A stretch of DNA of 64,000 nucleotides, taken from assembly GCA_030704615.1 (NCBI GenBank), contig CM060733.1:37448001-37512000 (forward strand), written 5' to 3'. Positions 1 through 56,600 of this stretch are shown here, piece after piece. This stretch comes from Takakia lepidozioides. Taxonomy: Eukaryota > Plantae > Bryophyta. Under the pieces are notes generated by a model, which made no database searches, was not told the origin of the DNA, and saw only the letters and a program-made list of their open reading frames with translations. The translations under genes and the position numbers were made by a program. The number at the start of each line of letters is the position of its first letter. Positions within the stretch are counted from its first letter, which is position 1.

Positions 1-1444
1 GTAAGAAGCAGAGTGTATTTCCACGGAAGAGCACCCTCAACCGCGGAAACAAGTTCGACGAAATAATAAAAGGACGTGGTCATCCCCACCTGAAAGTAAC
101 AATTGAATGCAAGATGGATGAATGTAGAGTGGATGAGAAATATATGGATATGTGGGAACAATGCAAGCGAATGGATGAATATGGGATGGATGTTGAATGG
201 TGGAAAACATTCTTGAATGGAGGATGCATGAATACACAATAGATGAATGCACAATGGATATGACATGAGTGTGAGGGGTTTAGGGGATGGATTCATGAAG
301 ATTGACATTTGAATCCGAGTAGATTGTTTGATTCATTTTCTTTTCTGCCGGAACAAATGCAATGAGGCAAGGGAATTCAATGAGTTCTGAATAGGATATA
401 AATAGAACATAAAAAATGCGAAGTTCAGTCTGATTCAGAGTCAGTACAATGTATCCCCGCGTCCTCTGCATCCAAGTCCAAGAATTTAAGAACTCTGGAT
501 CTACGATGGCTACTCCTGCAGTCGGGCAATAAGAAGTCAGGGGATAGAGCCTCGGCCATTTCAAATACCATTGCTTCGGCATAGACATGAAGCACAAAAG
601 TGGAAAGGGGAATGTCGAAAACAGTCTCGGCACAAATGGGGGTTTCTCCTGAAGATCCATCGCTGTCGTTCCTGCAAGTCAAAGCATGATAAAAGTTATT
701 ACTGCAATTTTGATGTATGCGAAATTGAACAAGCACCCAAACTGGAATGACATTTCCATGGCCAACTTACTCACATGAGAAGTCGTTGTCGATATGCTTA
801 TCCTCGGTATCTTCATCATTTCTGATTTGAATTTGTTCAGTCTGTGTGCCAGACGTAGAGCCAAACACAAGAGGGAGGATGACACTCTTGAATAGTTCGG
901 TGTCGCCCTCCATGCCAAAAAGGCTTCTCCCACCAACCTTGCAAGCACAGTAAGTCGCACCTGCCAAGACAGAAAGCCTCAAGAAGGTTGTAGAGGATGC
1001 AAAATCGGATGCAAACTGGAAGACCTTGAGAATTGAAACAGTATTGAACCAACGAACCTGTGGATAGTGTGAGGTCGACCACCCTTGCAGAATGGTGGCT
1101 GCATGACTCCAAGAGCGTCTGTATGAGCGCTGGGGTTCTCTCCCTTGCACCTCTCCACGGAAACCCGTCTGGTCTTTTGGCTGTCTGACTGGAGTGCATG
1201 GAATTGTACAGCATGTCATCCACATGCGGTTCATATGGGGGGTTGATAAAACACCCCTGGTTGGAAATTTCAAAGTTGCGAACGGATGAAGGTGTTTTGG
1301 AGGTGCGAATCCGCCTCAGGCAGATTGCCTCAAACATCCTTGTCTGGCAAAGATGCAAGGTAGGAGTGAGACATAGAAATTCGAAAGAAATTCTGGCGCA
1401 GGAAAGAACAGAACATGGACTGCAAATATAAATGGAAAGTTTTT

Positions 1445-1467
1445 GTGATGATCGGTGCCGATCATCA
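1445..1467. repeat. Single copy of the 24-bp palindrome GTGATGATCGGTACCGATCATCAC family (intronic)
   Basis: GTGATGATCGGTGCCGATCATCA read directly, inside the predicted 1344-1544 intron. Confidence 0.9.
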
Positions 1468-2703
1468 AATATGGTGGTAGAGCAAGCCAGCAGAAACAAC
1501 TGAAAAGACATTGGGAAATACTTCAGAGTAGGGCGGTGTCATACCAGCTGTCTAGGGCAACCACCTTTCAGAAGGTACAGGATGTTCACACAATTCCATG
1601 TCCTCAGAATTTCGAACCTAGACGACTTCAGGTATGATGCCAGACCCCTACGACTATCCTTATCACCTGACTGGAAGAGCAAAAGCGTTCCTGCATCTGA
1701 AAGGAATTATTGCAAAATCTGAATACCCAACTCCAGTAGTTCTCATCGAATCTGTTCCAGGATGGAGTCTTTCCCTTTGCAGGAACGTCGGGGACAGGCT
1801 GGCCGTGACCATGTCAGCGGCAAAGGGTTTTTGAACACCGCATATGAATGAGGGACCATTGCTCACCTGCAGCATACAGGTAGAATTTCAAGTCAAACAG
1901 AAATGAGGATTCCAACAGAAACCATCATCTACATTGGCATACACAATTTCGAAAGTCCCATGTGAAGAGGAAGATTCTTACCAGATTAAGAAATGAAATC
2001 ATGTTATCCCAAGTTGGTGATGGCACCCCCGAGTAACTCTTTCTCCGAGTCTCCATCATCGCCAGCCATCCCTCATTCACAATCTTGATCTGCCCTGCCA
2101 AGTCCGCATGGGAAGGGTGTGGCTTGGCATCGAATGGACATTCAACAGTGTGGGTGTATCTCCCAGCGGTCTCATCTTTCTCCTTGTCCTCACCTTTCTC
2201 CTTTTCCTGCTCTTTCTCCTTCGCCTTCTCCTTCCCCTTAGCCTTCTCCTTCTATTTCTCCTTAGGCTTCCCAGGTGACTTGGCTACTACCTCCGGAGCC
2301 TTTGGATCTTTCCCTTTGCGACCCGCCTTCCTGCCTTTCTGTGGAGTTGCCTACGCGTCTGGCTCCTTGGCGGCTAATGAAGCAATGTTCCTCTGGTACT
2401 CTTCGTCGTTCAAATGTGCTAGCATCTCCGCATGGTTGTTCATATACTTCTTATGCTGCTCTTGAAATGTTGTGTGCTCTGGAGGGCAGTCGAGGTACCA
2501 TCCACAGTCCCTGAAGTGGGCAGGACTCCAGTCCCTCAAGATACCAGCTGTGTACATGGTGGGATCGTTGGCAGGGTCGGACCACATGTCCAGGTAATCT
2601 GAGATTCCACTCAGGTGTTTTCCTTCCATCAACACATATTTAGTGTACCTGCGGAGGCTCAAACAAACACCATCCCCCAAAACAAGATATCAAAAAGCAG
2701 AAG

Positions 2704-2961
2704 AAAGTGATGATCGGTGGCGATCATCACTTTCACATGAGAGAGAATGCAACATGGGTTGGCAAATCCTTATGATTATGTAGACTGCACAAATGGGAAA
2801 TGTGATGGTCGGCACCGACCATCACTTCATTCATCAGAAACAGACTGCCTATGATAACAGAGGCATGATTAAGGATGGAAACAAGGACATGATCAACAGT
2901 GACAACTGTTTGACTGGAGAATATCATAGCAGTGGATGTGATGATCGGTACTGACCATCAC
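2704..2961. repeat. Three copies of the 24-bp palindrome (intronic)
   Basis: Copies start at ~2707, 2802 and 2938, inside the predicted 2649-3048 intron. Confidence 0.9.
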
Positions 2962-4871
2962 CAAACTGCTGTGTAGCAGAAAAGAAATACAAAGCACGAG
3001 GCATGACAAATGTTTAAAGAATGTGCTGGATAGGCATAAGGCACTGCACCTGTACACAACACGCATCATCGCCCACTCCCCTCCAACTTGACTGTCGAAA
3101 TCGTTCGACCTCAATATGTTGCCATCCTTGGAGAACTCTCGGAAGAAATAGTACCGCCACGTGAGACCTTTCCACTTTCTAATGTACGCCTCCAAGGTCA
3201 TCTGTGGTGGTGAGACCATCGAAATATTCAAGTCCTTCAAATTCTGCTCCAGGACAAGAATGGCGCGTTTCTCCAGCTGCAATGGGAACATGTATCAGAA
3301 TTGCGCATGACAAAGCTATAGGATATTTCATATACAACAGGTACTTGAATCCACAAATACCTGATTCCAAAATGTGGCCTTGTGAAGCCACTGATAAAAA
3401 ACAATATCACTTATTCCCTCGACCTTGGTGCCAGGCTGGATTGTGCTTTTTGGGAACTGATTCAGATCCTTCACCGTCTGATCCGAGTTCCAAATCTCAA
3501 GCCATCTCACTTTTGTCTGGTTGTCAACCATAGAGAGAGCCAGCCTGTGCAATTTCTCCTGTTGCATCTCTGGATGTACATGCTTGTCGTAGTGGGATTT
3601 GATTTGGAGAAGGAACTCCTCCCCAAGTCTGGGATCCACTATTCTCAATTGCTTTAGGAAGGCCGACATCAGCTTCGTTCTCCTTATCTCGTACTCCTTC
3701 TTTATGGCTGCTCCAACTCCTTTAGCAGTCCTCAGCTCTTCTGCTGTAGTGCGGTAGTACTCAGATTTCCCCCTCTTGGCGGCCTCTGCCAGTTCTTGCT
3801 GCAAGTAACAACGATTGGATTAGCAGACATACAATTGCAAATTTGTATGTAATAACATAGGAAGAAGTGGTTTGGGCCATACCGCATACATGTACTCCAA
3901 AAATGCATCTCGGGTCAACGAGTACCAGGTTCCTGCAGATCTTCCTGTTTCGCATGACATCAGGATGTAGCACTGTGCAGAACTCATCAAGCTTCATCAA
4001 ACCAATTCTCTGAATGCGGAATAGTGTATGGACCAAGCTCATAGTAACATGCGATTTCTCTGTCGATCTGCAAACAGAGAATACACATTGCATAGGTAAG
4101 AAATATTTAACGTTTGGACTTGAAATGCGCACAACATGCAATTTGAAAGTCAATGGTTTTTTGAGGAAGTCCTACTTGTTCACGTCATGCATAGCTGTCA
4201 GAAGTCTGGCGATGTCATTCCCAGGATCCAGAACCATTGCCTCCACAGCACAATGCTTGTCCTTGTCTTTTGAATGGTGTTTCGCAATGTACCCCATCCA
4301 AGCTAGCAAGCGATGGTTCCCGTCCTAGACATAGAACATGTGGTTGCAGAACTGCTGGGTGTTATGTCCAAGCAGCAGAGAGTCCTCAAACTCATCATTC
4401 ACATCCTTCCAGCAATCATCCCAGTTGTCCGTAATCTTTGGGCTCACTTTTGTGTTGTGACCATTAACATCCTGCAGTGAGACGTAAAACTTGTGCAGCC
4501 ATTCTATACCTGTGCACAAAATCTGTTTCCAACTTGATAATGTCATACGAAAGTGGAGGATGAACAACAGACATGGAGATCATTCGGCAGAGAGGGATTT
4601 CAAGACGTCCTCCAGAGACGATCATGTCCATAATAACCTCCTGGGAATTTACCTTTTGATATGACATAAGTTCTTTCACCTTGTCAAGGTAGTGCAATTC
4701 AGGCTCGTCGGTGTCTTCGCTGTTCTCAGAACTCTTTGTGGAGTCGTCCCCTTCTCCAAAGCCCTTTGCATCTGTTTCTGCCTGCTTGGACTTTACATTT
4801 TTCTCTATACCCAAAACCGCCACAATAGCAACATTCAACTAGTGTTCAGGAAAACAGACATTTCAACACAT

Positions 4872-6033
4872 TGACGATCGGTACCGACCATCACTTTGTC
4901 TTCTAACAAATGAATGGAAATTCTAGTTGGTTTCCCAATGCACCTTGTTTCAGTTCTCACTAGACTGCGATGATCGGTGCCGACCATTAGGATGATGCAA
5001 GCGATGGTCGGTATCGCACATCACCACAAGACGACATTGGGATGCAAACACCCACGAGGTCTGAATGTGATGGTCGGCACCGATCATCACTATAAGTCAG
5101 AATCCCTTCTATCACTCACTAAACTTGATCTCCTCTTTTGGATTCTGTTGCATTGCCAATCTGTTCAAAAAGTGATGATCGGTACCGATCATCACAATCA
5201 GATTGCATTAGGAAGCGAAACCCATGAGGTCAGAGTGTGATGGTCGGCACCGATCATCACTCTTAGTCAGAATCCCTTCTTTCACCCACTGAACTTGGTC
5301 TCCTTTTTTGGCATCTGGTGTATTGCCAAACCGTTCAAACAGTGATGATCGGTACCGATCATCACAATCAAACTGCCTTGGGAAGCACAACCCATGAGGT
5401 CTGGAAGTGATGGTCGGCACCGATCATCACTTCACAGCAGAATTCTGCATTTCATTATATGAGATATAGAGCAAAGAAATGGACTTGGAGGCGATGGTCG
5501 CCACCGACCATCGCTTTTCTGTTACTGCAATTCCAAATCTGAAGTGGAATGGACATTTTTCCACCTAAAGCATTTCATTCTACAAAGGCTTCCAGTGCAA
5601 GATAGGATTTTGGGTTAACATGTAGTCATTACCGAAAGTGATGATCGGTACCGACCATCACTATATAAGTGCCAAGGGATGCACAAACAATGGGAGCTGA
5701 ATGTGATGGTCGGCACCGATCATCACTTTCCTGAACGACCACGCCATGTCTAAACTGTTCTGAACAAGAAGGGAATGGACCTTAAAGCGATGATCGTTAC
5801 CGATCATCGCTTCGACGTCATTGCAAGATGCGTCTTTAGTTCCCTGTCACTCTTGAATCACAATGAAAATCGCATTCTTTGCTTAAATAAAGCAATGGCG
5901 AAGGTGATGGTCGGCACCGATCATCACTTTCGCCTTGATACATATTCTTTCATGCCTGCCTGCCTTCCTGAATCTGCTGAAATACGACACCAACTACATT
6001 CTTCTGTAAAGCGATGATCGCCATCGATCATCG
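4872..6033. repeat. Array of ~14 copies of the 24-bp palindrome, partly organised as a 170-bp higher-order tandem unit
   Basis: Copies at about 4872, 4967, 5001, 5067, 5172, 5237, 5342, 5407, 5490, 5638, 5704, 5787, 5904 and 6011. The copies at 5172 and 5342 are perfect palindromes. Spacing alternates 65/105 bp over 5001-5430. Confidence 0.93.
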
Positions 6034-6646
6034 TTTTTCTCACACTCGGCTAGCACTGTCTGGTTACCTACGCTCACTGCTCTAGCCGTCGCTGCGACTG
6101 CGGCGACCTCACTCTCACTTCCTACATGCTATTCTGTTTGATCTGTCTCCAAGTTCACATGCTGCCTAAGCGCTGCACCATCTTGCATGCGACGCCTCGT
6201 CATTTGCTCTCTTGATCTCGGCCTCTCTCTAAGCGATGTAAAATACAATAATTTCCTCCTCTTCCGAACCGAACAAGGAACCCTCTCCAACTTGACTTCC
6301 TCTCTTCCTCTAAGAAACAAGAAAGATGAACAGACTCGCTTTCTTTTGGGGTCCCGTCGTTTTGGAAGTGTCCCTGGAACCGTTCGATTCCCTCTTGCGT
6401 GTCCGATACTTGAACGTACGTTACAGTGAAAATAGCATAACCTAATTGGGACAGTTGTTCCTTTGCAAGGTTGTTTTGGGTTGTTGGCGTGTGCAAACAT
6501 AAAATTGACACGTGTCTTTTTTGTGACGGCTTCGTTAATATCACCGTTGGACGTCGCAAAGCTGAATCATCTGATTTCGCGAAGGAGCAACTCAGGGAAG
6601 AGAACCCCCCGCTCGGGGACGTAACATGGCTTCCTCCTAAAGGGAG

Positions 6647-9600
6647 ATGGTGGTGAAAAAAGAACAAACGTTCTCCACTCCAATCGTTGAGCTTTCGGAT
6701 TTGTCCGATGATGACATTAGTGAAATTCCAACTCCAGTCCTTTGTACTGTAGTTGTGGAAGTGGATGAAGAAGACATTTGTAGTGTCATTCCAAAACTAC
6801 GGGCGATGGGAGGAATGACAGGTTTCAAAAGTGAGTTGCGGGGAATTGATTGGGAAGCTTTGAAGCAGGTGCCTGTGAAGTTCCTGCCAGAGACTTTTGA
6901 TGGGGATATCCTATTTGAGCTGCCTCCTCCTCCGCGAGTTGGAGGTATAACAAGCATGATGCACGGAATGGACAAGAAACACGACGGGCACCCATGGTGC
7001 AAAACAAAAACATCCAATATTCAAAATAAGGACAAGCTTGTTTTCAGGAGAACAGTTTGCAATGGACACCTTAGGTGTGATAATTTGAATTGCAGACACT
7101 TTCTTCAGTCTGGGGTTCATAATGAAAGCGAGTGGGAGGGTCTCACGGAAAATCCATTTAAGCCTGGGACTGCTCCTCCACCGGAAACCACTTTCGTTTG
7201 CAAATTCTGCAAACTAGTGTCATCCTGCCTGGCGCTGTGTGGAGCAAGAATGTAATATGTTGTCCACCTTTTGAAAACAATGACAAGAGCCTATGTGCAT
7301 TTCAATTTCCATAACCATCCTGTCTCAAAGGGGGATTACAAGGAGAGTGTTGAGACAGTATCGAGGTTGATTAAACAGGAGTACGAGAGAAACCCATTCG
7401 CAACAACATCCGCAATTGCTCTTGGCACAAGCAAGTCCTTCTTGGAAAGCCATATTTTGAGTGAAGGGGATTTTGTGGGGACTAAACTTGACGGTGTAGC
7501 ATTGGACGTTGTCATGGATCATTTCTCCACGTTGAGTTCACCTAACATTCGGCATCAGATCAATGCATTGAGAATGGGCTCTGGGATTAGAGGCTACATA
7601 GACAACATTTTGGAATTGAAACGACTGAGCATGTACGACTACATCCATGACAATGTTTTTCCAGGTCAAGGTGCCATCAAAGTATTTCTTTTCAAAATGT
7701 CGACTGCTGAGGAGGGTAGTGGGGTTAGCCTCGTGAAGCGGATGCAGAAGACTGGGGACCTGTAGAATTGTTTTCTTATGTTTGATCATGTGAAACGAGT
7801 GAAAGATTGGACGACAATGGCTTGTCATGTCTATGATCCAGTGTACCAACGAGTTATGACAATTGCAGTTTGTGACATGCAATCCGAGGATACGGAATCC
7901 CAGAAGCTCATGTGGAATTCCCTTGTACGTGTTATGGGCTGCCATCTCCAAATTTTGCTGGTTTTATGGCAGATAGTGCTCAGGCGAATTTCAATGCAGT
8001 TCGAATTGTCTTCGGATCAGGCGACCCAAAAGTGCCAATGCCGGGAAGAGAGCGTACATATCTATTCCATTGGACACAATCTTTGGAGAAACATACAAAG
8101 TTGGATATCAAACCAGAGATGCAGACACAACACCGTAAATTGTGCAAAGAGTACAAAGATGCTAGAACAATGAAGGAGGCGGACACTTTGTTCCAGACAA
8201 TTCGTGCCTGGTGGTTCTCTTCTGGAGCTGCATCGCTTGAGAGTATGGGAGCATTGGAAGATTGGCTGGTGTTTTGGCACTTCCGGTACAGACAGTGGGG
8301 AGCAGCCATGACAATGGTGTGAGGCTAAAATTGCTAGCTTTATTCATACATTTACTTTCCAAATTTTCTCTCCTTGTTTTCTTTATGTTGTTCCCTGTGC
8401 ACTGTTCTGAAGTGTGGTTCTCATCTTTGCAGAACATGTCCATTGAGGAAATGGCGGACATGTCATCTTGCAATTTGGCAGAGACTGTGCACAATGCATG
8501 GTTGCAACAGTCTGGGAAACGAGGTTGGGATTTGTATGTGGCAACAACAGATAATCTGATACGTGCCTTGCAACAACAAACTAGATACCGTGATTTCTTG
8601 CGAGGAGGGGCTGGTGGCAAGGGTCCGGACAAACAGGAGTTGATGTTGCGTGCTGCAAACAGATCTAGGGATCCAAGCAAGGTAGCATGGGCGGTGAGCA
8701 TGTATGCCCAGGGAACGCCACTTGTTTCTAGAGTTCCACATTTTGAAGGGGAGGAGAGATTCGGCTCCTGTAAGAGGAAATTGAACACCCCACCTGGTTC
8801 GGATTCCGATTCACACAGGATAGACCGTGATAACTTCTCGAAGCCTCGTGCTCCCTTGCATGACAGATCCATGTCCGGAACCTCCATTTTGAAGGAACCT
8901 CCGACTCGACGGCAGACTCCGGCATCTAACAGTGCCACTGAAATGGTGCAGGAGAGACACTACCCCCTTGATGTGCTGGAGTCCGCATGCCCCGACCACG
9001 TTTGGCACATAGAACGCACAAGTGCAGGGTCTCGTGTGAAATGTACAGCGATTAGGGCAACTAATCTCGAGAAGTGCACTTCATCTATACCCAGAGGCGG
9101 TGCACGGACTCCTGCTCCGACTTTCACGGGTTTGATGCGTCCATACGGCCAACCAGAAGCAAAGAACCACAAGTTTTGGTTCTGCGCAGACGATTGTGGT
9201 AGATGTGTGCATGGAACTGTGCGTCCTTCCGTGGTGATGAAGCCAACTCCTCCAACCGTTTGGCCCGTCAAGGTGGGAACACATCTTACAAGTCAGGAGA
9301 TTGCAATACTGGAGGAGGCAGGCTTTTCGTTTGCGAGACAACCCCTACTGCATACATGTGTTTCTACTTCTGCGTCCTCTCGGGTCCCCCCGACAAATCC
9401 TCACTTGTGGCCAACCAAACGAGATGGAAAGCTGGTTCGGCGTTTCCCTCCAACCGCTGAACACTTTGGCAAAGTGGAGTCCGCAAGAATGCTCCAAGCT
9501 CGTGTTGCAAGCACCACGAAAGTGCCCGATCCAGGATATGGTCGGGTGTACACAATGATCACTTCGACATCTGCTGTTCATGACATGGCCTACGACATCA

Positions 9601-9818
9601 CGGTTTCCAATTTTCCCAATTGCACATGTTCTGATTTTGTGAATATGCTATCAACCAGTTTGGGCAAGAAAGGTAAATTCATACCCTGCAAACATTTGTA
9701 TTTCATATTTTTGAAGATGATGGTTTGCGATCCCAAACGTGACAACTTTGTTCACCAGGCCACTCTGAGTTTCAACGAGGTCGATACTCTATTGCAGCGG
9801 GATACAACACATAGGTAG
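6647..9818 (+). pseudogene. Mutator-like (MULE) transposase: Cys/His-rich WRKY/GCM1-like DNA-binding region, DDE core, C-terminal SWIM zinc finger
   Basis: CxxxxxC...CKFC...HFNFHNHP zinc-binding region. Catalytic-type motifs MFDH, GFMADSAQANFNAVRIVF...YLFHW (CxxH position) and SCNLAETVHNAW. SWIM motif CTCSDF...PCKHLY. In-frame stops at 7253-7255 and 7763-7765, a frameshift near 7940 and an intron at 8317-8432. Confidence 0.75.
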
Positions 9819-11245
9819 CATCAACTATGTCATGTGGTATGTGGACGATCATGCTATGAAATGTGTAATTTGCAACATTGTCATGGAAATTCAATTCAAA
9901 TCAATTCGTTTGCAACATCGTCGGCGGTGCAATGATATGGCGTCCCTTATCCTTCCATTATCCTTCCAACTATACTGAGTGAGCTCTGAGTGGCAACTTT
10001 TAAAAGCACATTCATCATTGCACCGTTCGAAGTCTACATGTCTTCCTGTCGCTATGCACTGCAACCATCTTTTGAAGATGATCCTAACTCTCATTGTTAT
10101 ATGGGGAGGGAGCAAGGTCTTCGCGTTGCAGCCTCTATGGCGCACACTTTGTGAGGATATTTTCAGACCCTTGTAATTATAAAAATGATACAAATATTTG
10201 TAATTGCACAATGTTGGATGCTGCAATTGTAGGCCTCATGGTAGTCTTGATTGTATTCAGCCAAGGATTCCCTTCATTATTCCCACGGTCATAGGACCAT
10301 CCTCGGTTATAGGCGGCGCATGTTCATGCTTACGTGGCAGATGACGGCGCGGTGTCACGTCAGCATTTGTCGCCACATCAGCCTACTGACATCACACTCA
10401 TGCCACGTCAGCGTGGGTGCACGCTCACGCCACGTCACTCCTTCGTGAGCGTACGCTTGCGTGCTCATGCCATTGCAACGTTGCTCATAATCTAGGATGA
10501 GGAATGTTTCCTTCCAGAGGTGTCATCCTTTTGTTGGCTCCTCCCTCAAGAGGAGACCATGCATCACTTCCAAAATATGAGAAGATCCTGATATGCCTTT
10601 ACCGGAAACATAACAGTCGATATACCTTCACTAGTTAATATTGCACCTAAGACTTGATATTGATGAGCATCAAATATTAGTTTGTATTGTTTTTTTTTAT
10701 GAAATAAATTTTTAACTAGTAACAACCATTGGTAAATGGCTGGATATCACCGGTGAAAGCTGGTCGCTATTTCTTCGTCCCTACTCTTTTGTCAGCAAAG
10801 GCTTGGCCTTCGTCGTCCTGCCCCCGAGACATGATGCTGGAAACTGTTGATAGCTCAGCACTCACAATCTGACAATGTTTCATGATTCAACCAATCTTTG
10901 CCAGGTAATGAAGTAGTTGCAACCCAGGTACTGAGTTAAAGATTAAATTATGCCATAGTCAAATGATCGAAGCCTTCCTTCTGTGCCTTCGAAAGGCCAA
11001 GCCTCATGGGGCGAGGTTTAGGGTTTTTGTTCTGCAAAAACTTACGTAAGACACTGCATTGTTTTTTCTTCTCATGGACTGATAGACAAGGGTTACCAAA
11101 AACAGGGGTAGAGTTATTTCCAGTGCGTGAGATGTGACTAAATTTCTTTTTGTAGTGAGAGTATAATGCTTCAGATTTGGAAGGGTTTGAATTTGCTGCA
11201 AATAACCACATAATGGACCGGCCGGTTATGCATGGATGGGGCCAG

Positions 11246-27369: not shown

Positions 27370-29690
27370 GTGACCCACGTGGGTCTCTGAGATTTTCATG
27401 GCGAATACGAAGGAATGCTTTCAGTCCGATTCTAGTATTGGTCATGATGTAGGACCACACATCTAGTCCACGTAAGTTGTAGGAATGCAACTCATTCTAT
27501 CATCCCATCAGCTCTGCACATCACCATGTGGCTGTGACTCTTTGACTTAAAGCTCTAGCAACTTGGATGGAGGGGACCATAATGGATAATTAGGTGCCTC
27601 AGGTGGCTTCTTAACTTCTGGTAATTTCCTGTAAGTCAAGGAGTGTTTCAATCCAATACTTGTACCCAGCATGATGCAGAACTGTCTCCACTCCATGTTC
27701 TGAAAACCTCCTTTATGAAAGTAACTACTTTCTCATACGAGGATCCAAGAAGCTTGCAGATCACCACATAGCTTTGACATACGTTTTAGTGGTGGATGGA
27801 GGTGACCTTGATGGATCAGGACTGCTAATCTTAGTCCAATACTTGTACAACATGATGCAGGACTACGTCCACTCCTGACTGTTCACCCTTTAGGACGGCA
27901 ACCCATTCTCATACGAGGATCCATCAGCTATTGCAGGTCACCACGTGGGCTTTCCTTAAGTTTTTAGCAGTGGATAGAGGGGACCCTGATGGATCAGGTG
28001 CCTCCTGTGACTTAGCAAGTTCTGACAGTTGCTTGAAAGAATGCTTTCAAGCCTATACTTGTACGTCCCAGAATGATTCAGGAGACGTCCATTTCACCGA
28101 GGTCCTGCAAATTGAGCTGGGAGTGCTGCAACCTATTCCAATACCTGGATCCACCAGCCATTGCACATCACCACGTGGCTTTGATTTGAGGTGTAGCATT
28201 CTGGATAGAGGAGATCCTGATGGATTAGGCGTCGCTTCGCAAGTTCTGACAGTTGCTTGAAAGAATGCTTTCAGTCGGACACTTGTACGTCCCAGCATGA
28301 TTTAGGACCACGTCCATTTCAATGAGGTTCGGCAAATTGAGCTGGGACTACAACCTATTCAAATACTACGAGCCACCAGCCTCCATTGCAGGGCACCACG
28401 TGGGTTTGATTTGAGTTTTAGGCGCTTCGCGAGTTCTGGCAGTTGTTTGAAATAATGCTTTCAATCCCATACTTGTCCCCAGCACGATTCAGGATCATGT
28501 CCCTTTCACTGAAGCTCTAAAAATTGAGCTAGGACTGCAACCTATTCTACCATGAGGATCCATCCGCTATTGCAGGTCACCAGTCACCACGTGGGTTTGA
28601 TTTAAGATCTAGCAGTGCATAGAGGAGACCCTGATGGATCAGGTGCCACACATTGCTTCGCAAGTTCTGACAGTTACTCAAGAAATTAAGAATTCTTTCA
28701 TTTGATACTCGTACCCAGCACGATTGAGGACCACGTCCAATTCACTGAAGGGCTGAAAATTGAGCTACGACTGCAACGTATTCTACTACAATGATCCATG
28801 TCAGCTATTTCAGGTCACCACGTGGATTTGACTTAAGATTTAGCAGTGGAATATAGAGGAGATCCTGATGGATCAGGTGCCTCACGTCGCTTTTCAAGGT
28901 TCTGACAGTTGCTTGAAAGAATGCTTTCAATCCGATACTTGTACCCAGCATGATGCAGAACCACGTCCATTTCACTGAAGCACTGAAATTCGAGGTAGGA
29001 CTGCAACTATTCTATTCTAATACGAACACCACCAGCTATTGGAGATCACCACGTGGCTTTGACTTTATGTTTTTCCAGGGGACCCTGCTGGATAGGGTGC
29101 CTCAGGTTGGGCTTAGAAAGTTCTGACAGTTTCTTGAAATGCTTTCAATCTGATATGTACTTGTACCCTGTATGATTCAAATTCACGTCCATTTCACTGA
29201 AGTTATGAAATTCGAGCTAGGACAGCAACTATTCTATTCTAATATGATCACCACGTGGGGATTTGACTCATAGGTTAGCAGAGTATGGAGGTGACCCTGA
29301 TAATCGATCAGGCCACTCACTTCGCTTCCTATCAAGTTCCTACAATTGAGGAATGCTTTCAATTCAGTGCAAGTTTGTACTTAGCCCACTGCAGATCCAC
29401 GGCCAATTCACTCGAGTCCATTCAATGGATCCCACCAGCTAATGCGGATCAGCACGTGGCTCTGTCTCAAGGTTTAGTGGTGGAAGCCGGCGACTCTGAT
29501 GGATTAGGCCACTGTTGTCGCTTGTCAAGTTCCTACAATTGTTTTCAATCAACTACTTGACGTACCCATCATGATGCAGAACCACGTCCATTCCACTCAT
29601 CAATTTCCGAAAGCCACCTAGCTGTTGGAATGCTGCATTCCATCTAATACGAGGATCCCACCAGTTATTGCAGATCACCACGTGGTAAAG
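27370..29690. repeat. Diverged tandem array, ~11 units of ~180-240 bp (commonly 231 bp), each with CACCACGTGG or a close variant
   Basis: Recurring blocks GAATGCTTTCAATCCGATACTTGTACCCAGCATGATGCAGAACCACGTCC, GATCACCACGTGG and GACCCTGATGGATCAGGTGCC. CCACGTGG or variants at ~27523, 27763, 27941, 28171, 28396, 28587, 28818, 29049, 29251, 29452 and 29678. Confidence 0.9.
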
Positions 29691-31644
29691 TTATGTCCAT
29701 CTATCACAACAATCATTGGATGCACTGTATAAAAAAGTGCCAATCTCGGTGCCAATGATTCGTTATTAGAATGTGCACACGACTCTTGTCCGAGGAGCTC
29801 TAGATTACATGAGCGCAATTGAAAGATCAGAAATTTGTCTTTTAGCAACGTAGTTCAAGGGTGTCGCGATCCCAGGAGGTTACCTCCACACGAGAGGATC
29901 CAATGAAAGTCTTCTATGAGGAATTGTCTTGTAAGCTAATTTTATAAGTACTGTTCAAAGCCTGTCGCTATCGATCTCCAGATGGTGTTCTCCACACGCG
30001 AGTTCTATACCTATTCCTCGGATGATCGCTTACCTCACGATCCAAAATAGGAGGGATTCTCACTACCAACACGTGTGCATTCTGATTTACCACTCAAACG
30101 TCTACCTTAATGGGACCTTATACCATGTCAAAATCACATCTACTGCTCACTGCCAGCCTTCCTATTTTTGCTCCAAGCTGTACTGTGAGAAGACCCCTCC
30201 ATTTCTGCTAACATACTGACTAGTCCAGCAGGTCAGCTTCGTCTTAAACCACAGCTCCTGGTCCAACAGGTAGCCTTCTTCTTGCAAAAACATAATTCCT
30301 CATTCCTTGTCCAGAAGTACGCATGGTTGAGAATTAAGATAGCATCTCCACGCAGTGTTTGAATGTGCAGACTTGGACTTTGAAACTAAGTTAACGATTT
30401 GTAACGGAAGCCAATAGCCCTTAGGGAAGAAGTGAGCCCACAATTGATTCGGCGGAGTCACCCTTTAAGGATTTGTATTCAAACATCCATGTTGAACTCC
30501 TGAATTCCTGATAGGCACCTCGCACTAAGATCTTGTACTCAGTCCATCAAGTTTCTCCCCATAATCAGTGCATAGGGTTCAATAAGCCAGTGTGACCAGT
30601 GGACTGCAGATTTGACAGGGCCTCCCCTGAGCCTCCAGACACTGAAGGGAGAACCCCTTCACTTCCTTCACTGTCCTTCCTATACCCCAGCAAATCTGTG
30701 TCTACAGACACCCAAGGCTCAAACTTGGAAGGATGGTCCTTGATCCCAGAACTGGAGTTCCCATGACAAAGTTAGGCGAAGTCTCCAGCAACAAAATCCT
30801 ACAGTGCTTGTGGTGTACATGGTATGGATGAGCCCAAGCACAGTTTGATGTTCTCTAACAGCTCTAGCGACTCATGTTTGTGTCAACAACAGCCTTTGCC
30901 TAGGTAGAATCTTAGCCTCCCGTGAGCAAAAAATTCGCATATCAACTAAGAAAAAATATTTCTGTGGTAGCTTGCAGGGCACAACAACAGTGATGAGGAC
31001 ACACGTACACAAATCCCAAATGAATAGCAACAAGCTAGACCACAGGCAAGGAGACTGAAATGAAGGATGGCTGAGCATCAAGCTTCTGTCTTTACCAAAA
31101 CCCAGGAACTCCCCATGTGCCAGATTAAAAGACAACTGAGTGTCACAATCTACATTCCAAGAGGGCCCTGCAGGGAGGAGGCCCAAGCCCTCCTATACCA
31201 GAAAACTTTGATTACAAACACAGCATTACTGGCCATCTACTTATGGCCATAAAAATGGCAATGTTGGGTTACCTCTTGTACTCATTCCCCACATTCATTC
31301 CAGCACGCTTTTGGTGCAGATAAGCTAGAAACTGCTTGGGGCTGGGTTCTTCTCTTAAGACAGAGCACACATGCATTTCTACAACAATCTAACTCTGCAG
31401 AGTTCCAGGCCCCTTTGAGACTCCATTAGTGAGCTCCACCTTCGGCCACCTAGAGCAGAGTTGTCTAGAACAGGTCTGTTCTCATCAAATCTGTACGAGC
31501 ATCCCACCTCCAGACCTATCAGCGATCCACCTTGTCCCTCCCTGTGTTGCTTGCTCTCTCCCTCTCAACATACAAAGGTGTCTTCCCCATGGAACCCTCC
31601 TTTACAATTTCTCTTTGTGTCATTCATATGAAGTAAGGTAAGGC

Positions 31645-42870: not shown

Positions 42871-45800
42871 TTACCCCCGGCTACTGCAGAGAGTTGCTCT
42901 CCCCTTTCCTTTGGGCAGTTTGCAGGCGCCAGAATCTTCAACATCTTTGAGCTTGTAGTAGTGGGGCGCAATCTCAACCAACCACTCTGGCTTGATCTCA
43001 ATCACCTGTCGCATGAACTCCTTTGTGGTTAGAACAAGCTCATTGTAAACCACCCACCTTGCAGGCATCACCTTACACAGACCTGAACTTGGGTGTATGC
43101 TCACTGTTTGTGGATTCTTGATAGTGCAATATGATCCATTCTTTTGCAGCTTTGCTGTGTGATGAAAGAAGCCAGAAGTGATGGCCTTCTTTATGGCCTC
43201 AAGGTCATGTGGATTGGAAATAAGCTTGATATCCACGCGCTCCATAAGACCTACTAATTGGTCCCTGATGTTACGTGCTCGCTTCATACTCCGCACTTGA
43301 ATGTAATTTGCATAACACCATTGTGTAGAGTAATTCGTTTCCATCCATGTGTTGTACACCTTGAGGAGGGCAAGATGGTCGCCAACGTTCCCTGCATGGA
43401 AATTCATGTGTGCATTGTCAGCGTGCACTTGCTTGTTCTTGGGGCGGTAGAAAATAGAGTTTCCTGTAGAAAGCATGGCACATATGGTTACAATCTCCTC
43501 TGAGCATTGAAACTGATCTGAAGCGATCAACATCTTGGAGAGCATTGGGTCCAGTGGAAACTCCGCCATCCGCCTCCCTGTCTTTGTCAACTCCCCGCGG
43601 TCATTCAACGCACCGAGAGCATAGAGCTGCTCTAAAGCCCTGAAAAGTGTTTCAGCTGGAGGGGGGTCCATGAAGTCAAAGTTGATCGGCTCATGGATGC
43701 CCAATGTCTTCAGTAATAAGACCACATTACCCAAATTCGTTCTTTGAACTTCAGGTATTGTGTTCTCGTCCATTTCATTTCTGAATGACCACTTAGTGTA
43801 CAGACGATAACATCTTCCAGCAGAGGTGCGACCGACCCGACCAGCACGTTGTTGAGCCGCAGACTGAGAGATAGAAGTAACGGTAAGCGACTCCATACCA
43901 GAGCGAGGATTGTAGCTTTTTTGCTTACAGAAGCCGGGGTCTATGACATAGCGGATACCATCGATTGTAAGAGAGGTTTCTGCAATGTTGGTAGCCAGAA
44001 CAACCTTTCGAGTCCCCTCGGGAGATTCTTCAAAAATCTTTGCCTGCATTTCTGGAGGAAGATTTGCATAAATAGGCAGTATTATGATTTCTGAAATATT
44101 TGAACCAAGACCTCTAATCCTATGTTTCAGCATCTCTTCCATTGCTTCAATCTCCTCTTGACCTGGAAGGAAAACCAGAACGTCGCCTGTAGGTTCTTCG
44201 ATGTGGATCTGTAGGATTGTCATTATTGCTCCTTCTATAGAGCCCGCCGGTTCTGGTGTTTTTGCATAGAAGATTTCTACCGGAAAACGTCTACCTGGTA
44301 TACGAAAAATGGGTGCATCGTCAAAATAGGCAGAGAACTTCGTTGCATCCAAAGTAGCACTTGAGATCAGCAATTTGATATCCGTCCGAAACCGTGTGAT
44401 ATCCTTGAGAAGACCAAACAAGATATCTGTCGACAGGGTCCGCTCATGTGCCTCATCAATTATCATGACACTGTAGCTGGCTAGATCGGGTTCACTCAGA
44501 ATTTCCCGCAGAAGCATGCCGTCTGTCATGTACTTGATAATTGTAGCTTCTGAAGTGCAGTCCTCAAAACGGATGGAGTACCCAACCTCACGACCCAGTT
44601 TGACCGACATCTCTTGAGCTACACGAGCGGAGACACTCATGGCAGCCACCCTTCGAGGTTGTGTGCAACCTATTTTTCCAAGCTTACTGTACCCTGCTTC
44701 GTGAAGGTATTGGGGGATTTGAGTAGTCTTTCCACAGCCTGTTTCTCCTTCGATCACAAGAACTTGGTGATGTTTTATTGCATCGAGGAGTTGATCCTTG
44801 TACATATATATTGGTGTTGTCTTCCGATTCTCTAGAAGCTTGTGTGCGGTCTTTGCAGCTGTTGATCTCACTTCTTCATTTATTTCTAAATCTTCCTCAA
44901 CCTCGTGTCCAACCATGGTAGAAGCATGGATGAAATCAACCTGGTTGTCAAACACAAACTCATAATTATCTCCGCTCCTCTTGCTATTATGAGCTCCAAA
45001 CCTGAGGGTCCCTTTATCTCTTTGTTGTTCCTCCCACGATTCTTGTTCAGCAAATCTGTTGATTTTTCCATCCTTGTCCACATTCCTAATAAAATCTAAA
45101 GCACAATCAAATTTTATGCTCCTTCTGTCGTATTCCACAGGCATTCGATACTCCTCAATATCGTTCACATCCTTTGCACGGTGTTTTGCAAGCTCATAAA
45201 CTTCCTTCTTGTACGAATATTTTGCCTGCTCTTTGGTTGTCAGTTTTTTATCTCCAAATAAAAGCTCTTCATCAATCAACTCATCCTTGAGCATTTGCAA
45301 CTTCTTTGCCTCTCTCACTTTCAAGTACTCTTGTCTCGACTTTTCCCTTAGCGTAGGCAGAAGTTCGTTTCGTCCGTGAGCTTCTCCTTTTCGTCTCGCT
45401 TCCTCTACTTGTCTTTTCGACAACCTAAAACACTCTACGTTTCTTAGGGTACCGATATCCTTCTCATACAAACGCTTTTCCAACTCCTCCTCACATTGAT
45501 CCTCCTCTCGAACTCTTTTCCTTCCCGCCTCTTCACCATCATTTCCCTCCAGTTTCACCCGCCTGCTCCGACCCCGTTTCATGGGCCGCGCAGTGTCCTC
45601 GTCTACATCCTCTTCACCTTTTCTGCGACTGCTCCCGACGTTCTTCCCCACGTAGCCTACGTCCACCACAACTCTGGCAACCTCTGCCCGTTCAACATCA
45701 TCGGCATCCAACATATCAGACTGCGCACTCGAACCACCGACTTTGCATAACATGTGTCTATGCAAATTCTCGGCAAACGTCTGAGTACCTTTTGAAACAG

Positions 45801-45954
45801 GGAACTCGTAATTCTGCAAGTGATCGATTAGGTCTTTCACGGATTCGGTCTTCTCTGCTATTCTCATCACAAATTGAATCACGGTCGGTGTGTTGTAGCC
45901 CAGCAGTTTTAGCAACCAGTCTCCGATCCACCTGCGTGTCTCTTTGTCGTCCAT
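42871..45954 (-). CDS. Intronless DEAH-box pre-mRNA splicing RNA helicase, Prp2/DHX16 (ESP3/DEAH1)-like
   Basis: 1027-aa ORF with a PWI-like N-terminus, SRQEYLK..KKL, GETGCGKTTQIPQYL, TQPRRVAAMSV, DEAHER, SAT, LATNIAETSLTI, QRAGRVGR, HA2 and OB-fold ending WLVEIAPHYY. Confidence 0.95.
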   Translation of the reverse strand: MDDKETRRWIGDWLLKLLGYNTPTVIQFVMRIAEKTESVKDLIDHLQNYEFPVSKGTQTFAENLHRHMLCKVGGSSAQSDMLDADDVERAEVARVVVDVGYVGKNVGSSRRKGEEDVDEDTARPMKRGRSRRVKLEGNDGEEAGRKRVREEDQCEEELEKRLYEKDIGTLRNVECFRLSKRQVEEARRKGEAHGRNELLPTLREKSRQEYLKVREAKKLQMLKDELIDEELLFGDKKLTTKEQAKYSYKKEVYELAKHRAKDVNDIEEYRMPVEYDRRSIKFDCALDFIRNVDKDGKINRFAEQESWEEQQRDKGTLRFGAHNSKRSGDNYEFVFDNQVDFIHASTMVGHEVEEDLEINEEVRSTAAKTAHKLLENRKTTPIYMYKDQLLDAIKHHQVLVIEGETGCGKTTQIPQYLHEAGYSKLGKIGCTQPRRVAAMSVSARVAQEMSVKLGREVGYSIRFEDCTSEATIIKYMTDGMLLREILSEPDLASYSVMIIDEAHERTLSTDILFGLLKDITRFRTDIKLLISSATLDATKFSAYFDDAPIFRIPGRRFPVEIFYAKTPEPAGSIEGAIMTILQIHIEEPTGDVLVFLPGQEEIEAMEEMLKHRIRGLGSNISEIIILPIYANLPPEMQAKIFEESPEGTRKVVLATNIAETSLTIDGIRYVIDPGFCKQKSYNPRSGMESLTVTSISQSAAQQRAGRVGRTSAGRCYRLYTKWSFRNEMDENTIPEVQRTNLGNVVLLLKTLGIHEPINFDFMDPPPAETLFRALEQLYALGALNDRGELTKTGRRMAEFPLDPMLSKMLIASDQFQCSEEIVTICAMLSTGNSIFYRPKNKQVHADNAHMNFHAGNVGDHLALLKVYNTWMETNYSTQWCYANYIQVRSMKRARNIRDQLVGLMERVDIKLISNPHDLEAIKKAITSGFFHHTAKLQKNGSYCTIKNPQTVSIHPSSGLCKVMPARWVVYNELVLTTKEFMRQVIEIKPEWLVEIAPHYYKLKDVEDSGACKLPKGKGRATLCSSRG

Positions 45955-46086
45955 GCCACTCTATCTCCCGTTGACGTCTGTCTTGTTCTACACTGTCAGC
46001 CGCTTGCAGTGACTCAATCCTTGTGACTAAGTTGGTGCTACTTATACTCGACATGAATAAACAAAAGGCGGGAATGATCAAACTTT

Positions 46087-51233: not shown

Positions 51234-53126
51234 CTATGCCGCAACCTCTTGAGCAATACTCCTTGCCTGCTCAGTCAATGACAAGGCCTCATCTTGCCCC
51301 ATCATCTCATCCTTGAGGACTTCCTCCACCCGAGAAAAATCCCCAACCTCATCTATCACCGCCACCTTGGCTGCCAACTCCCTCTGAACCTCGAGCACCT
51401 CCCACGTGTGCCATGGATGCCTGCACCCCGTGGTCCTCACATGCTCGCCCCCACTCGCTGCCTGTACCGTCTCGGTAGGCAGAGAGACCATCGAGGGAAG
51501 TGTACTCCGCACTCTTCGTTGCTCAGCCATAGCCAAGCTGATAATCCAGGTCAAGCAATTTAGATCCATTGCTTGCCCCAACACCTGACGACGTGATGCC
51601 TCAGAAAGAGAAGGCACCGCCGTGGTCCCAGTGGAAAAACCCATAGCCCGCTCTCGCTCGTCGGCATTAGGCTCCACTAATTGCTGCAACTGAGCATCCC
51701 ACAGGAGGCCACGTCCATTATCCCAAAAAGCATGCGATCCTGGGAAGCTGAGCAGTGTAGGTAGTACCGCTCGTGGTTGACCCACCTTGTTGACCACTGC
51801 CAAAGGTGAACGGTCATCGTATCTCACACGCTGAGACTGCCTCCCTGTGTCCAAAATGTTATCCACTGTGAGGTGTGTTGGCCACTGCACCCCATCAAAT
51901 GCACGCTTAAGCAGTGCGGGTGGCATCAAGTTAGTCCACCATAACCGTGGACGATGAGCCCGTGACCCCACTGCAGCTGCATCCAGCAATACTGCTGACC
52001 CAAGCCACAACCGGACTTGATGTACACTGGCCATCACCCTGGCCCGAGAATCGCCTATCAGTGGCACATTCTCCAAGATGTATGCTGGAGATACAGCCTG
52101 ATGAAGCTGTAAATGGCGCAAAACCCGCACCATCTCCCAAAACAGACCTGACCTCGAGTCTCGCAATCCATTGCCATGCTTGGCTGATGAATACCCTTGG
52201 CACGGCCAACCTGCCACTACCAAATCAATGAAGCCAACCCGCTCCAAATCCTGCGCCCCCAGCAAAGAGATGTCTGCTGGCAAGGCCTGCTGATATCCAC
52301 GAACCGCAGACACCGACAACAACTCACGATACTGCTGCACCAACTGAGCAATATAACGGAGTAAGACGCGTCGTACAGTCTCATCCCTCTCCATATATAG
52401 GTAACGCCGAACTCGTACACCTGCCTGTAACAAAGCAGCCAATCCGGTGCTGATCCCACCAAACAAGTCCAGAAGACAAATGCCTTCATCCGGATACTGC
52501 CACACAATAGATGTGGTGTCCAATGGAGACAACTGAGGTGGTCCTGGTGCAATCCCCGCACTCTTCTCCTCTCCTGATGGTACAAAAGCCTCCACCCAGG
52601 CTTGTTGCACCCGTCGATCAGCATCCCGCTGCAAATCCTTGCTCATGCCCCACAATGGAGTCTGAGCAACCATGGTAGGCAACTCCGCCATACCATACAT
52701 GTCATCATGCTCTCCCGGAGGTGGCACATCCTCTGAATGAGCGTTGCCCTCAAGCAACTCTCTAGGCCAACTCACTGTCGCTGTGAATGCTGCTAGTGTC
52801 GGCATCTTGCCTCGTTGGGCAACCGCAACTCCTCCTATGAACGTCATAGGGAGCTGCACACGCCGGCCCTCCCCTGACTGCCATGCAGGCCTATAGGAAG
52901 CTGACTCCTCCCAAAAATCCAGGGTGAAGCCCATGGGGTACAACACTGCCCCACCAACAAGGACATCGTACGAGACCGCGTTTGTCACAATGGCCTTGGC
53001 TCTCATCACTGATCCATCTGTAGGATGATCCGGCTGTAGTCTGATAGCCAACTCACGCCGTGTCATGCCCCGAACCTGCTCTGATCCTCCCAAAGATGTC
53101 TGTATCTGGAAAGGGCACGGCTCCAT
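51234..53126 (-). CDS. pol segment: protease C-terminus plus C5-cytosine DNA methyltransferase domain (~51540-52490)
   Basis: Uninterrupted 630-aa ORF with motif I LDLFGGIS, II YMERD, III DI, IV AGWPCQG, V DSRSGLF, VI ILENV, VIII AHRPRLWWTN, IX ERERAMGF and X RQVLGQAMD in canonical order. Confidence 0.93.
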   Translation of the reverse strand: MEPCPFQIQTSLGGSEQVRGMTRRELAIRLQPDHPTDGSVMRAKAIVTNAVSYDVLVGGAVLYPMGFTLDFWEESASYRPAWQSGEGRRVQLPMTFIGGVAVAQRGKMPTLAAFTATVSWPRELLEGNAHSEDVPPPGEHDDMYGMAELPTMVAQTPLWGMSKDLQRDADRRVQQAWVEAFVPSGEEKSAGIAPGPPQLSPLDTTSIVWQYPDEGICLLDLFGGISTGLAALLQAGVRVRRYLYMERDETVRRVLLRYIAQLVQQYRELLSVSAVRGYQQALPADISLLGAQDLERVGFIDLVVAGWPCQGYSSAKHGNGLRDSRSGLFWEMVRVLRHLQLHQAVSPAYILENVPLIGDSRARVMASVHQVRLWLGSAVLLDAAAVGSRAHRPRLWWTNLMPPALLKRAFDGVQWPTHLTVDNILDTGRQSQRVRYDDRSPLAVVNKVGQPRAVLPTLLSFPGSHAFWDNGRGLLWDAQLQQLVEPNADERERAMGFSTGTTAVPSLSEASRRQVLGQAMDLNCLTWIISLAMAEQRRVRSTLPSMVSLPTETVQAASGGEHVRTTGCRHPWHTWEVLEVQRELAAKVAVIDEVGDFSRVEEVLKDEMMGQDEALSLTEQARSIAQEVAA

Positions 53127-55411
53127 ATCCGCCTCTGCCCAACATCAATGGCTGAGCTCCCGAGTCCAATAAGACCCGCAGTGGCCAGTACCTCTTGCCT
53201 GCCGATCCACTCAAACAGAAAATGCCATCCTGGTTGTCTAACATGACAACTCCAGGTGTAACCATGGCGCGCTCAATGGCTAGCCTAGCTGGCAGCTCCA
53301 TCAACCTGGCAGCTGTAGCTTGCCATGGCGCCGCCGTGGCAGTCTTGACCCTCAAATCCGAGGATCCCTCCGGCACTACACCTCCCACTATCTCCACAGA
53401 AGATGAAGTAACCTCCCTACTCTCACAGAGTGTAGCTGCCAACCTGAACACCTCAGCTGGTCTTACCCCCGGCGTCGCAATCATGGTAGATGAGAACAAT
53501 GGAGCCTGATGTGGCCGCTCCTAGCAGCACACTAGCTGCCGTAGCCTTGGCAACACTAGGTAGTGGTGCTACCCGTGTAGCTCTCCCCAATGGCATAGTA
53601 ACCTCCGCCTCGGTAACAGTCGGGCGAGAACTTGGTGTCATGGACGGCGTCGACACTGTCTCCACCAATGTGAATGACTGAGGAAGCCTGGCCTGACGGC
53701 TTGCCTCCCCACGCTATGGATCCAACTCCACCTCCGCACCTCGTGGCTCAGGAACTCGTGTTGCTCCTCGAGTCACTGCCGCAGCTGACTCCACTTGCAC
53801 TAGTGGTAGTCCTGCCCCGCACATAGTGGTAGTGGTAGTGGCACCCCTCATTAGTGGTAGTACTGCCCCCCACATGAATCCCATGCCTCCCAAGTCTCCT
53901 CCTTCAGGAGCAGGAGGTGGACCATCCGGCCTTGGAGCCGGTACCACCTGAGCTGTGGCCATGGCAGCGAGCCTCTGCTCTAGCTGCTGAAGCCGGTTGG
54001 CCATGCCTTGGTCACCACCCTGACCTCCACGTCCTTGGCCATGTTGAGCTTGCCCTTGGCCTGCACCTCGTGCCTGGCCACCTCGTGGGCTGCTCCACCT
54101 CGCCCCCGGCCACCATTGTTCCCTTGGAACTGGCCTGGGCGCAACTCAGGATGCAAACCATAGCATTGGGCTTCTCCATGCCCGTACTTGCCACAATGCC
54201 CACACTGCAACTGTGCAGGCTGTGCATGTGTCGGCCCTTTGCCTCCCTCTGGGCAATCCTTCTTGACATGGGGTCCTCCACATGTCCAGCACACCACATC
54301 CGCCCGTTGTTGGCCAGCAAATGAAGGGAGAGACCCCTGCATCTGAGGTCCTCTCTGCCCTTCCCTGAGCTTCACCTGAGCCCCCTTGTTGCCTTGAGCA
54401 CGTTGAGGTAGTGGTTGGCTAGGAGCACCACTACCCCGTGGTGTCTCCTTAGCAAATCCCACCATGACCACTCGTTCCTCCACCATGTTGAGCTCTATCC
54501 GCTCTGCCAGCAAAAACACATTTGCTAAGGTGGGTTGGGCCGCTTGTAGGAGAGTTGCATCCCGCACCCTTCTCTTCAACTCCTTGTCCAATATCCCATA
54601 CCAGAATTGGACTGCCTGAGCTTCCGTAACCCCTTGGGTTACATTTATCAAGCGCCTCATGCGAGTGAAAGCCTCCCTCAAGCTCTCGGTCGGCTTCCGT
54701 TGGAACTCTTGCAAGCTCCGCAACTTCTCTGTCCTCACCCCTTGGTAGTTCCCTCTCAACTCTTCGAAGAACTCCACAATAGGGTTGAAGGTAGGCACGG
54801 GTACTGGTGCTAGTGCGGTAGTGGCTTGGGTAGACGTCGTAGCTACGGTACCACTAGTCCCACTGCTGCTTGCTGAAGCTGCCAGTGCAGCGGCAGGTGT
54901 AGCCACTGCCCTCGTGACTCTAGTGCCCCTAGTGATGGAGACATAGTCGGGTGACCAGTACATCCTCCACTCCTTGATCTCAACCTCATGCCCCCGCCTG
55001 AACTCATGGTAATCATCCATAGGCGGCCCCTCAAGGTGCTGAAACAGCCCCTTTCATGCCGTGAAAGGCCTAAATAGTTGTGGATGGCGCATTTGCTGCA
55101 AATCACACCAACTATCAAACTCTTGGATAAAATCATCCAACTCGATGATGCCCCACCCCAGAGTACCTTCGTGGCCCCTTGGTAGCTCCATACATCTCCT
55201 CCATTGTGTCCCACAATAATGGCAAGGAAACAACTTGCACCGTCGGTATGAGTCTTCCTGATTCACAATCCGAATCAGAACATTCCGTAGAAGACACAGG
55301 AGGTAAAGGTGGCCTAAACCGCACACCTCGTCTCGTGTACCCACTAGTATCACTAGTGCTCGAACCGGCACTATCCCCAGCAACTAGTGGCACCTCCATG
55401 TTGACACTCAA
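53127..55411 (-). pseudogene. gag (capsid-like region, two zinc knuckles) and aspartic protease N-terminus; stops and frameshifts
   Basis: LDDFIQEFDSWC..LQEFQRKPTESLREAFTRMRRL; CWTCGGPHVKKDC and CGHCGKYGHGEAQC knuckles; VLLDSGAQP protease active site at ~53150-53175. Confidence 0.88.
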
Positions 55412-56084: not shown

Positions 56085-56600
56085 GCACAGGCCGTCCACA
56101 GGTCAACACGGGCCACCACAGACCAGCACAGGCCCACACACCTCACTGGTCACAACCATCACAGCCCCACACAGGCCACAGCCTGTCACAGCCCGTCACA
56201 GCCCATCACAACCCCAAAGGCCACAGGCACAGCCTGTCACAGCCCTACAAGGGTCACAGGGTCACAGCCCCAAAGGCCATAGCCTGTCACAGCCCCTCAC
56301 AGCCCCATAGGCCACAGGGCACAGCCTATCACAGCCCGCCACAACCCATCACAACCCATCACAGCCTGTCACAGCCCCTCACAGCCCCACAGACCACTGG
56401 GCACAGCCTGTCACAGCCCGCCACAGCCTGTCACAACCCCTCACAGCCCGTCACAGCTCGCCACAGCCTGTCACAACCCGTCACAAACCCCACAGGCCAC
56501 AGGGCACAGCCTGTCACAGCCCCTCATAGCCCGTCACAGCCCCACAGGCCACAGGGCGCAGCCTGTCACAGCCCCTCACAGCCCCACAGGCCACTTATGA
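56085..56600 (+). repeat. Minisatellite of TCACAGCCC/GCCTGTCACAGCCC units inside the retroelement leader
   Basis: Dozens of CACAGCC(C/T) motifs with higher-order CACAGGCCACAGGGCACAGCCTGTCACAGCCC blocks. Confidence 0.92.

Follow-up and report, generated by a model that had tools for sequence, protein, structure and literature searches.

A 64,000-nucleotide stretch of the Takakia lepidozioides genome (assembly GCA_030704615.1, contig CM060733.1, positions 37,448,001 to 37,512,000 of the forward strand; hereafter the window) raises the question of why a transposable element should carry a 24-bp palindrome many times over within the predicted introns of one of its own genes. The gene is a passenger gene on the minus strand (6203 to 425) of a multi-copy element, its product combines a ParB-like with a methyltransferase-like domain, and it lies head to head with a broken Mutator-like transposase gene. 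We consider it fairly probable that the element's own ParB-like protein binds the palindromes as a dimer, with tandem duplication raising their density and with protein and motif drifting together in each lineage.

A scan of the whole window yielded 18 sites within six mismatches of the perfect palindrome, none with seven or eight, and a background that began at nine, so that the palindromes form a cleanly separated class. At three mismatches or fewer there were 14 sites, compared to 0.00 expected from 100 shuffles. Under a ten-exon gene model, the sites were distributed among three predicted introns (14, 3 and 1 copies), with none in the six short introns, in the exons or past position 6034, which bears out a sequence-only reading of the same DNA that had counted about 18 copies in three introns (1, 3 and about 14) and none in exons or elsewhere in the window. 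The intron holding the lone copy (1544-1344) has a counterpart at the matching place in one relative, L003, whose exons are open. The 14-copy array arose partly by tandem duplication, as seen from a 170-bp unit and recurring spacings of 65 and 84 bp, and it adjoins the shared promoter region of the two head-to-head genes, about 0.6-1.8 kb from the transposase start.

The palindromes differed less than the DNA around them. Between two tandem 170-bp units, 0 of 48 motif positions differed compared to 23 of 122 spacer positions (Fisher P = 3 × 10−4), and a second pair of units gave 1 of 48 and 15 of 44. Relative to other element copies, three variant sites fell in motifs where 10.7 were expected, in a test that used 40 listed of 141 variant sites and that is skewed to spacers; each time it is the other copies that have the consensus base. 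Observed CpG was 1.36 times the expected number within motifs and 0.45 times that number within spacers. Judged from these comparisons, the palindrome is likely kept by selection while the spacers drift, in agreement with the earlier proposal that the motif is retained as its surroundings diverge and against the refuting alternative named with it, a palindrome no better conserved than its spacers. It is quite unlikely that the palindromes are passive, functionless repeats that were amplified by slippage and that resemble each other through gene conversion or hairpin-guided repair, although part of the array was made by duplication, some contigs point to units having been gained or lost, and each copy is able to extrude a hairpin. 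Duplication copies spacers as well, yet divergence is confined to the spacers, and hairpin repair predicts perfect palindromes, whereas only 2 of the 18 are perfect, and among the 16 imperfect ones a single asymmetric variant is found five times without change. Passive repeats would also leave unexplained the unrelated palindromes that other lineages carry at the corresponding point of the gene.

Among the 36 half-sites, columns 3-6 and 8-10 were near-invariant, and column 7 held A 21 times and G 14 times, with the two halves of a copy varying independently there (symmetric in 8 of 18 copies, 8.8 expected). The centre of the palindrome was loose and mostly asymmetric. The claim that several variants keep their symmetry through paired changes stood for column 2, the sole column with such a change (symmetric in 16 of 18, 11.7 expected, P = 0.012), and fell for the rest; even this symmetry was probably one event, because the three copies with the symmetric change occupy repeated positions of the duplicated unit. 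Non-Watson-Crick pairs had nearly the same make-up whichever strand was read, with 7 G-U pairs to 13 mismatches for the sense strand and 8 to 12 for the opposite one. Read from the alignment of copies, this half-site pattern fits a degenerate double-stranded dimer site rather than a selected RNA stem.

We give a small chance to an RNA role, in which neighboring intronic palindromes would pair into long hairpins and be diced to small RNAs that regulate or silence the element. When folded, palindromes spaced 65 bases apart gave sense-strand stems of 24-28 bp (z from −7.5 to −10.6), and two weak microRNA-model matches were obtained, both far under the gathering score, at which Rfam gave no match. 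VANC sites, which are non-coding, of VANDAL transposons are also targeted by RNA-directed DNA methylation (PMC10398659). However, hairpin folding is expected of any two nearby palindromes, one palindrome stands alone in its intron, and the balance of G-U pairs and mismatches shows no strand preference. The suggestion of a pre-mRNA hairpin is accordingly weakened, since the asymmetric pairs lack a sense-strand G-U bias.

To what extent the palindromes belong to the element was assessed in relatives of the passenger gene. The best 80 of 172 relatives in a metagenome scan represented 59 distinct loci, 31 of which were left out because their sequence upstream of the ParB exon was shorter than 1 kb. 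Of the 28 loci analysed, 17 had a palindrome family with at least three copies in the 2.5 kb upstream of that exon, and 12 had one with at least four. In the controls, families of three or more copies turned up in 0 of 140 shuffles, in 2 of 27 windows taken elsewhere in the same loci and in 1 of 21 host-DNA windows. These arrays tie the motif to this kind of element. The layout of one relative, L025, resembles that of the window, with 15 palindromes upstream and two in a later intron, and two others, L039 and L077, have palindrome blocks farther down within the gene. Compared by eye, close relatives have a common palindrome and distant branches have different ones, with a suggested inner core shared between the palindromes of different lineages; an exact scan of the metagenome contigs for the motif of the window gave 0 matches. 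On this sequence comparison, the relatives display motif turnover with lineage, which is short of proven co-evolution.

Two palindrome families were interleaved in one array upstream of the ParB exon at six loci (L059, L060, L066, L072, L079 and L004), an arrangement suggestive of two binding specificities. At L034:4725-6230 and L042:4985-5210, additional tandem arrays of short period and dyad symmetry were located in or beside the element.

The ParB exon, the second of the gene, had 80 homologs among 142 candidates, and a full scan placed its family at 1,263 clusters at 50% identity (E 0.001 or better). Homologs were obtained in the near-length search, and a search among longer proteins gave no match. 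Ten homologs were looked up by name, of which seven had a species name, four from the liverwort Riccia sorocarpa and three from the fern Adiantum, with no Arabidopsis protein among the ten. Pfam and PDB sequence searches returned no match to a ParB domain, which was found by fold alone. The predicted model of homolog P0001 (predicted local distance difference test, pLDDT, 83.7) had ParB, Noc, KorB and PadC as its best matches and aligned with Caulobacter ParB at Z 8.8 and a root-mean-square deviation of 2.1 Å over 94 residues, and in a wide search with a second model all eight rows with Z of at least 5 were ParB/Srx members. GxxRxxA is the nucleotide-binding box of ParB/Srx proteins and is accompanied by a downstream Asn, and here its G was conserved in 78 of 78 sequences, R in 77 of 78, A in 72 of 78 and the Asn in 69 of 69, counts that are partly favored by the word-based search. 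As modeled, the first domain of the passenger gene has a ParB/Srx fold, and the following exon is predicted to be helical (pLDDT 71-89). Because the motif is kept, is tied to the kind of element and accompanies a first domain with a ParB fold, a putative parS-like site is the best of the four readings offered from the sequence.

A prokaryotic origin of the close relatives was rejected, as the one locus found in 185,579 species genomes has introns at plant positions and was judged a contaminant. An intron-bearing family member, L081:711-4100, lies on a contig filed under a cyanobacterial assembly, likely through contamination.

The best Pfam match of the C-terminal region was PF01555 (E 0.004 in L003 and 0.035 in L011), which a full-length Riccia protein that also has the ParB domain (P0227) matched with E 5 × 10−5 and which the C-terminal region of L081 also resembles, below the cut-off. 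E values ranged from 0.2 to 9 × 10−6, and every match was under the 26.7-bit cut-off. All four PHROG matches of the region were methyltransferases, and a PDB search with it gave no match of note. Motif IV precedes motif I, the order expected for a beta-class N4/N6 DNA methyltransferase, and motif I is partly retained. The canonical catalytic motif IV is [DNS]PP[YFW] (DPPY type). Motif IV was non-canonical in every relative read (DYPE, DIPE, DVPE, DVPR, DIPW, NVPG, DMPS, DLPT), which makes DNA methylation doubtful, and was disrupted by a frameshift in the window copy; to judge by these residues, the domain probably does not function as a DNA methylase.

These results bear on whether the palindromes are targets for N4-methylcytosine or N6-methyladenine made by the methyltransferase-like domain, which we regard as very unlikely. 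The Pfam and PHROG matches and the remnant of motif I speak for such targets, while the sub-threshold scores and non-canonical motif IV speak against them, and 24 bp is a long site for a methylase acting on its own. Nor did the two targets that had been suggested hold up, both being among the most variable parts of the palindrome: the Dam-type GATC was missing in 15 of the 36 half-sites, and the central six-base GGTACC was intact in just 4 of 18 copies. Methylation could nonetheless follow, as a second step, once ParB has loaded.

The element that hosts the gene is likely a Mutator-like transposon of a non-seed land plant, a class judged from its layout and, for the DDE residues of the transposase, by eye. 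Transposons of this class encode a transposase with an N-terminal zinc domain, a DDE core and a C-terminal SWIM finger, and they have terminal inverted repeats and a 9-11 bp target duplication. The layout fits the description of Mutator-like elements (MULEs) in the relevant passages of PMC1702500; the broken transposase frames had no match to the Pfam MULE domain, and the SWIM finger scored E 0.06, below the cut-off. The edge of the element was marked by a drop in summed contig depth (run X1) from more than 200,000 to about 140 past position 10752. Depth was about 1,080-1,300 over the array-bearing subfamily compared to 47-49 for single-copy contigs, which gives roughly 20-30 copies as a depth-sum estimate rather than a true copy number. 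Of the 12 relatives whose upstream sequence spanned 8 kb or more, 6 had a homologous transposase head to head. The transposase, encoded next door in these six and in the window, or else a host transcription factor might bind the palindromes instead of the passenger protein, and the two motif types of some relatives leave room for two binders. We nevertheless hold this to be unlikely, because the palindrome is absent near the element's right end, where different short repeats lie (10350-10480), because it varies between lineages, unlike a host-factor site, and because ParB genes with inverted-repeat arrays also accompany a CACTA-type transposase. The same absence at the right end weakens the earlier suggestion of a transposase site.

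Several observations weigh against binding by the ParB-like protein. An array upstream of the ParB exon was missing in 11 of the 28 relatives, and 12 of the 17 positive loci fall in one clade, which leaves perhaps six to eight independent cases. That some relatives have two motif types hints at a second binding factor. Foldseek matches of the P0001 model had E values of 0.013 or weaker, and the helical region after the ParB domain matched no ParB-type helix-turn-helix. The variant test favors spacers, since contigs are interrupted at the motif, where depth is also inflated. Lastly, a few contigs join the motif to sequence absent from the window, which may represent other subfamilies or unlinked sites.

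If the ParB-like protein does bind the palindromes, its dimer would read two 10-bp half-sites flanking the loose centre, would load there, perhaps as a CTP-closed clamp, and would thereby mark the element as self, and tandem duplication would multiply the sites in the introns of the protein's own gene. Its most likely job would be to keep the chromatin of the element open or to set the promoter region that the two genes share, in the way that VANC acts on VANDAL elements. VANDAL elements are Mutator-like, and VANC is not known to contain a ParB domain. By analogy with VANC (PMC5735166) and VirB (PMC10653881), self-marking against silencing is the likeliest use, and plain autoregulation may be the alternative. 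The window copy is decayed and could only be served in trans. A more far-reaching version is that a large transposon family of non-seed land plants encodes a nuclear, CTP-driven ParB sliding clamp that loads on lineage-specific parS-like palindromes in the introns of its own gene, spreads along the element and undoes silencing, with the dead methylase fold as a reader or scaffold and the whole a solution of bacterial style convergent with VANC; this we put forward tentatively and consider rather doubtful.

Known systems share parts of this arrangement. According to passages of PMC5735166, VANC binds motifs that tandem repeats have accumulated across non-coding regions of the VANDAL element encoding it, the introns of its gene included. 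As with the palindromes here, these motifs differ between families, but the VANC21 motif in those passages is a short 9-base word rather than a 24-bp palindrome, and anti-silencing is demonstrated for VANC, whereas here we infer it. VirB, in the passages of PMC10653881, uses a ParB fold for CTP-dependent anti-silencing through loading and spreading, and the same ParB N-terminal fold and palindromic sites link the plant family to bacterial ParB/parS and KorB. Unlike bacterial ParB, the plant protein is the product of a spliced eukaryotic gene, has an insertion of about 60 residues in the fold and gave no helix-turn-helix match, and no ParA was seen in the element.

Two algal transposons come with ParB-like genes as well. 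PAG3, a ParB-like passenger gene of Plavaka (CACTA-type) in Bostrychia, has adjacent tandem inverted-repeat arrays, and its authors propose self-binding (bioRxiv 10.1101/2025.02.11.637652); as far as the passages on PAG3 go, it differs in belonging to a red alga and a CACTA-type transposase, in having a 2-oxoglutarate (2OG) oxygenase as its second domain and in having arrays adjacent to the gene, and those passages contain neither a test of motif conservation nor motifs that are specific to lineages. In the passages on Sola1-1_Ec32 of the brown alga Ectocarpus (PMC12477816), an accessory gene for a protein of about 1,100 amino acids combines ParB-like and N4/N6-methyltransferase domains on the strand opposite the transposase, much like the gene described here, but the element is a Sola element, the word "palindrome" is absent from the main text, and the methylase is taken as active, whereas motif IV of the plant family is non-canonical.

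ParB genes with inverted-repeat arrays are thus already published for red-algal transposons, as described in the PAG3 passages. What is new here is the Mutator-like lineage of non-seed land plants, the intronic arrays, the lineage-specific palindromes and the probably dead methylase fold; no report of a land-plant ParB passenger gene with palindrome arrays was found in a search that left subscription journals largely outside. Self-recognition and self-protection of transposon DNA have been shown for few systems, with VANC the clear plant case, and for the algal passenger genes self-protection was proposed from domain content and nearby repeats in the passages cited above. The family, with its 1,263 clusters and its liverwort and fern proteins, is large, and many natural protein-palindrome pairs of different sequence mean that cross-binding can probe specificity. 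If the reading is true, a ParB-type DNA clamp would operate in the plant nucleus and could be a source of sequence-specific chromatin-opening tools.

The gene model draws on GT/AG splice signals, on frames that stay open and on exons homologous to those of relatives, and its introns are predicted (Table 1). They are also backed by the absence of the first-exon stop from the other copies compared. The window copy of the gene carries stops and frameshifts; two of the latter, at 4485 and 1704, are places where contigs of other copies have extra letters. One contig from run X8, presumed to be RNA, reads by eye across the intron 1057-961 with a loose end at 963; runs X7 and X8, which are RNA by guess, do not reach the palindrome array.

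Table 1 Palindromes, genes and exons of the element, in window positions.
Feature	Position	Strand	Details
14-copy palindrome array	4871..6034		Predicted intron 1 (6067-4805); starts 4871, 4967, 5001, 5067, 5172, 5237, 5342, 5407, 5491, 5638, 5703, 5787, 5904, 6011
Three palindromes	2707..2961		Starts 2707, 2802, 2938; predicted intron 3049-2649
Lone palindrome	1445..1468		Predicted intron 1544-1344, within methyltransferase-like region
Predicted first coding exon	6068..6203	-	In-frame stop 6129-6131
ParB/Srx-fold exon	4176..4804	-	DGNHRLLA at the GxxRxxA box; one stop and, near 4485, a frameshift in window copy
Four predicted exons	1972..4067	-	About 4067-3870, 3798-3361, 3276-3050, 2648-1972; two donor sites uncertain; conserved, partly helical middle region and Lys/Glu-rich linker
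Three methyltransferase-like exons	771..1866	-	1866-1545, 1343-1058, 960-771; frameshifted in window copy
Predicted last exon	425..671	-	Acidic tail
Broken Mutator-like transposase gene	6641..9815	+	Head to head with passenger gene; C-terminal SWIM finger
Multi-copy element	1..10750		Right end about 10490-10750; left end at or before position 1

Elsewhere, the window contains a pentatricopeptide repeat (PPR) gene, an intronless 1,029-amino-acid DEAH-box helicase frame (42874-45960, minus strand) that is possibly a retrocopy, and pieces of a CACTA-type transposase (61083-63998, minus strand; PF02992, PF13960). Retroelement-like open reading frames at 51237-55053 (minus strand) include a C5 cytosine methyltransferase domain (PF00145, E 3 × 10−11) downstream of a gag-like frame, and a tandem repeat with a 10-bp period (56130-56640) adjoins this methylase-bearing retroelement. 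A degenerate tandem repeat of about 230 bp with short palindromes, at 27500-29700, is the one host-DNA control window that was positive.

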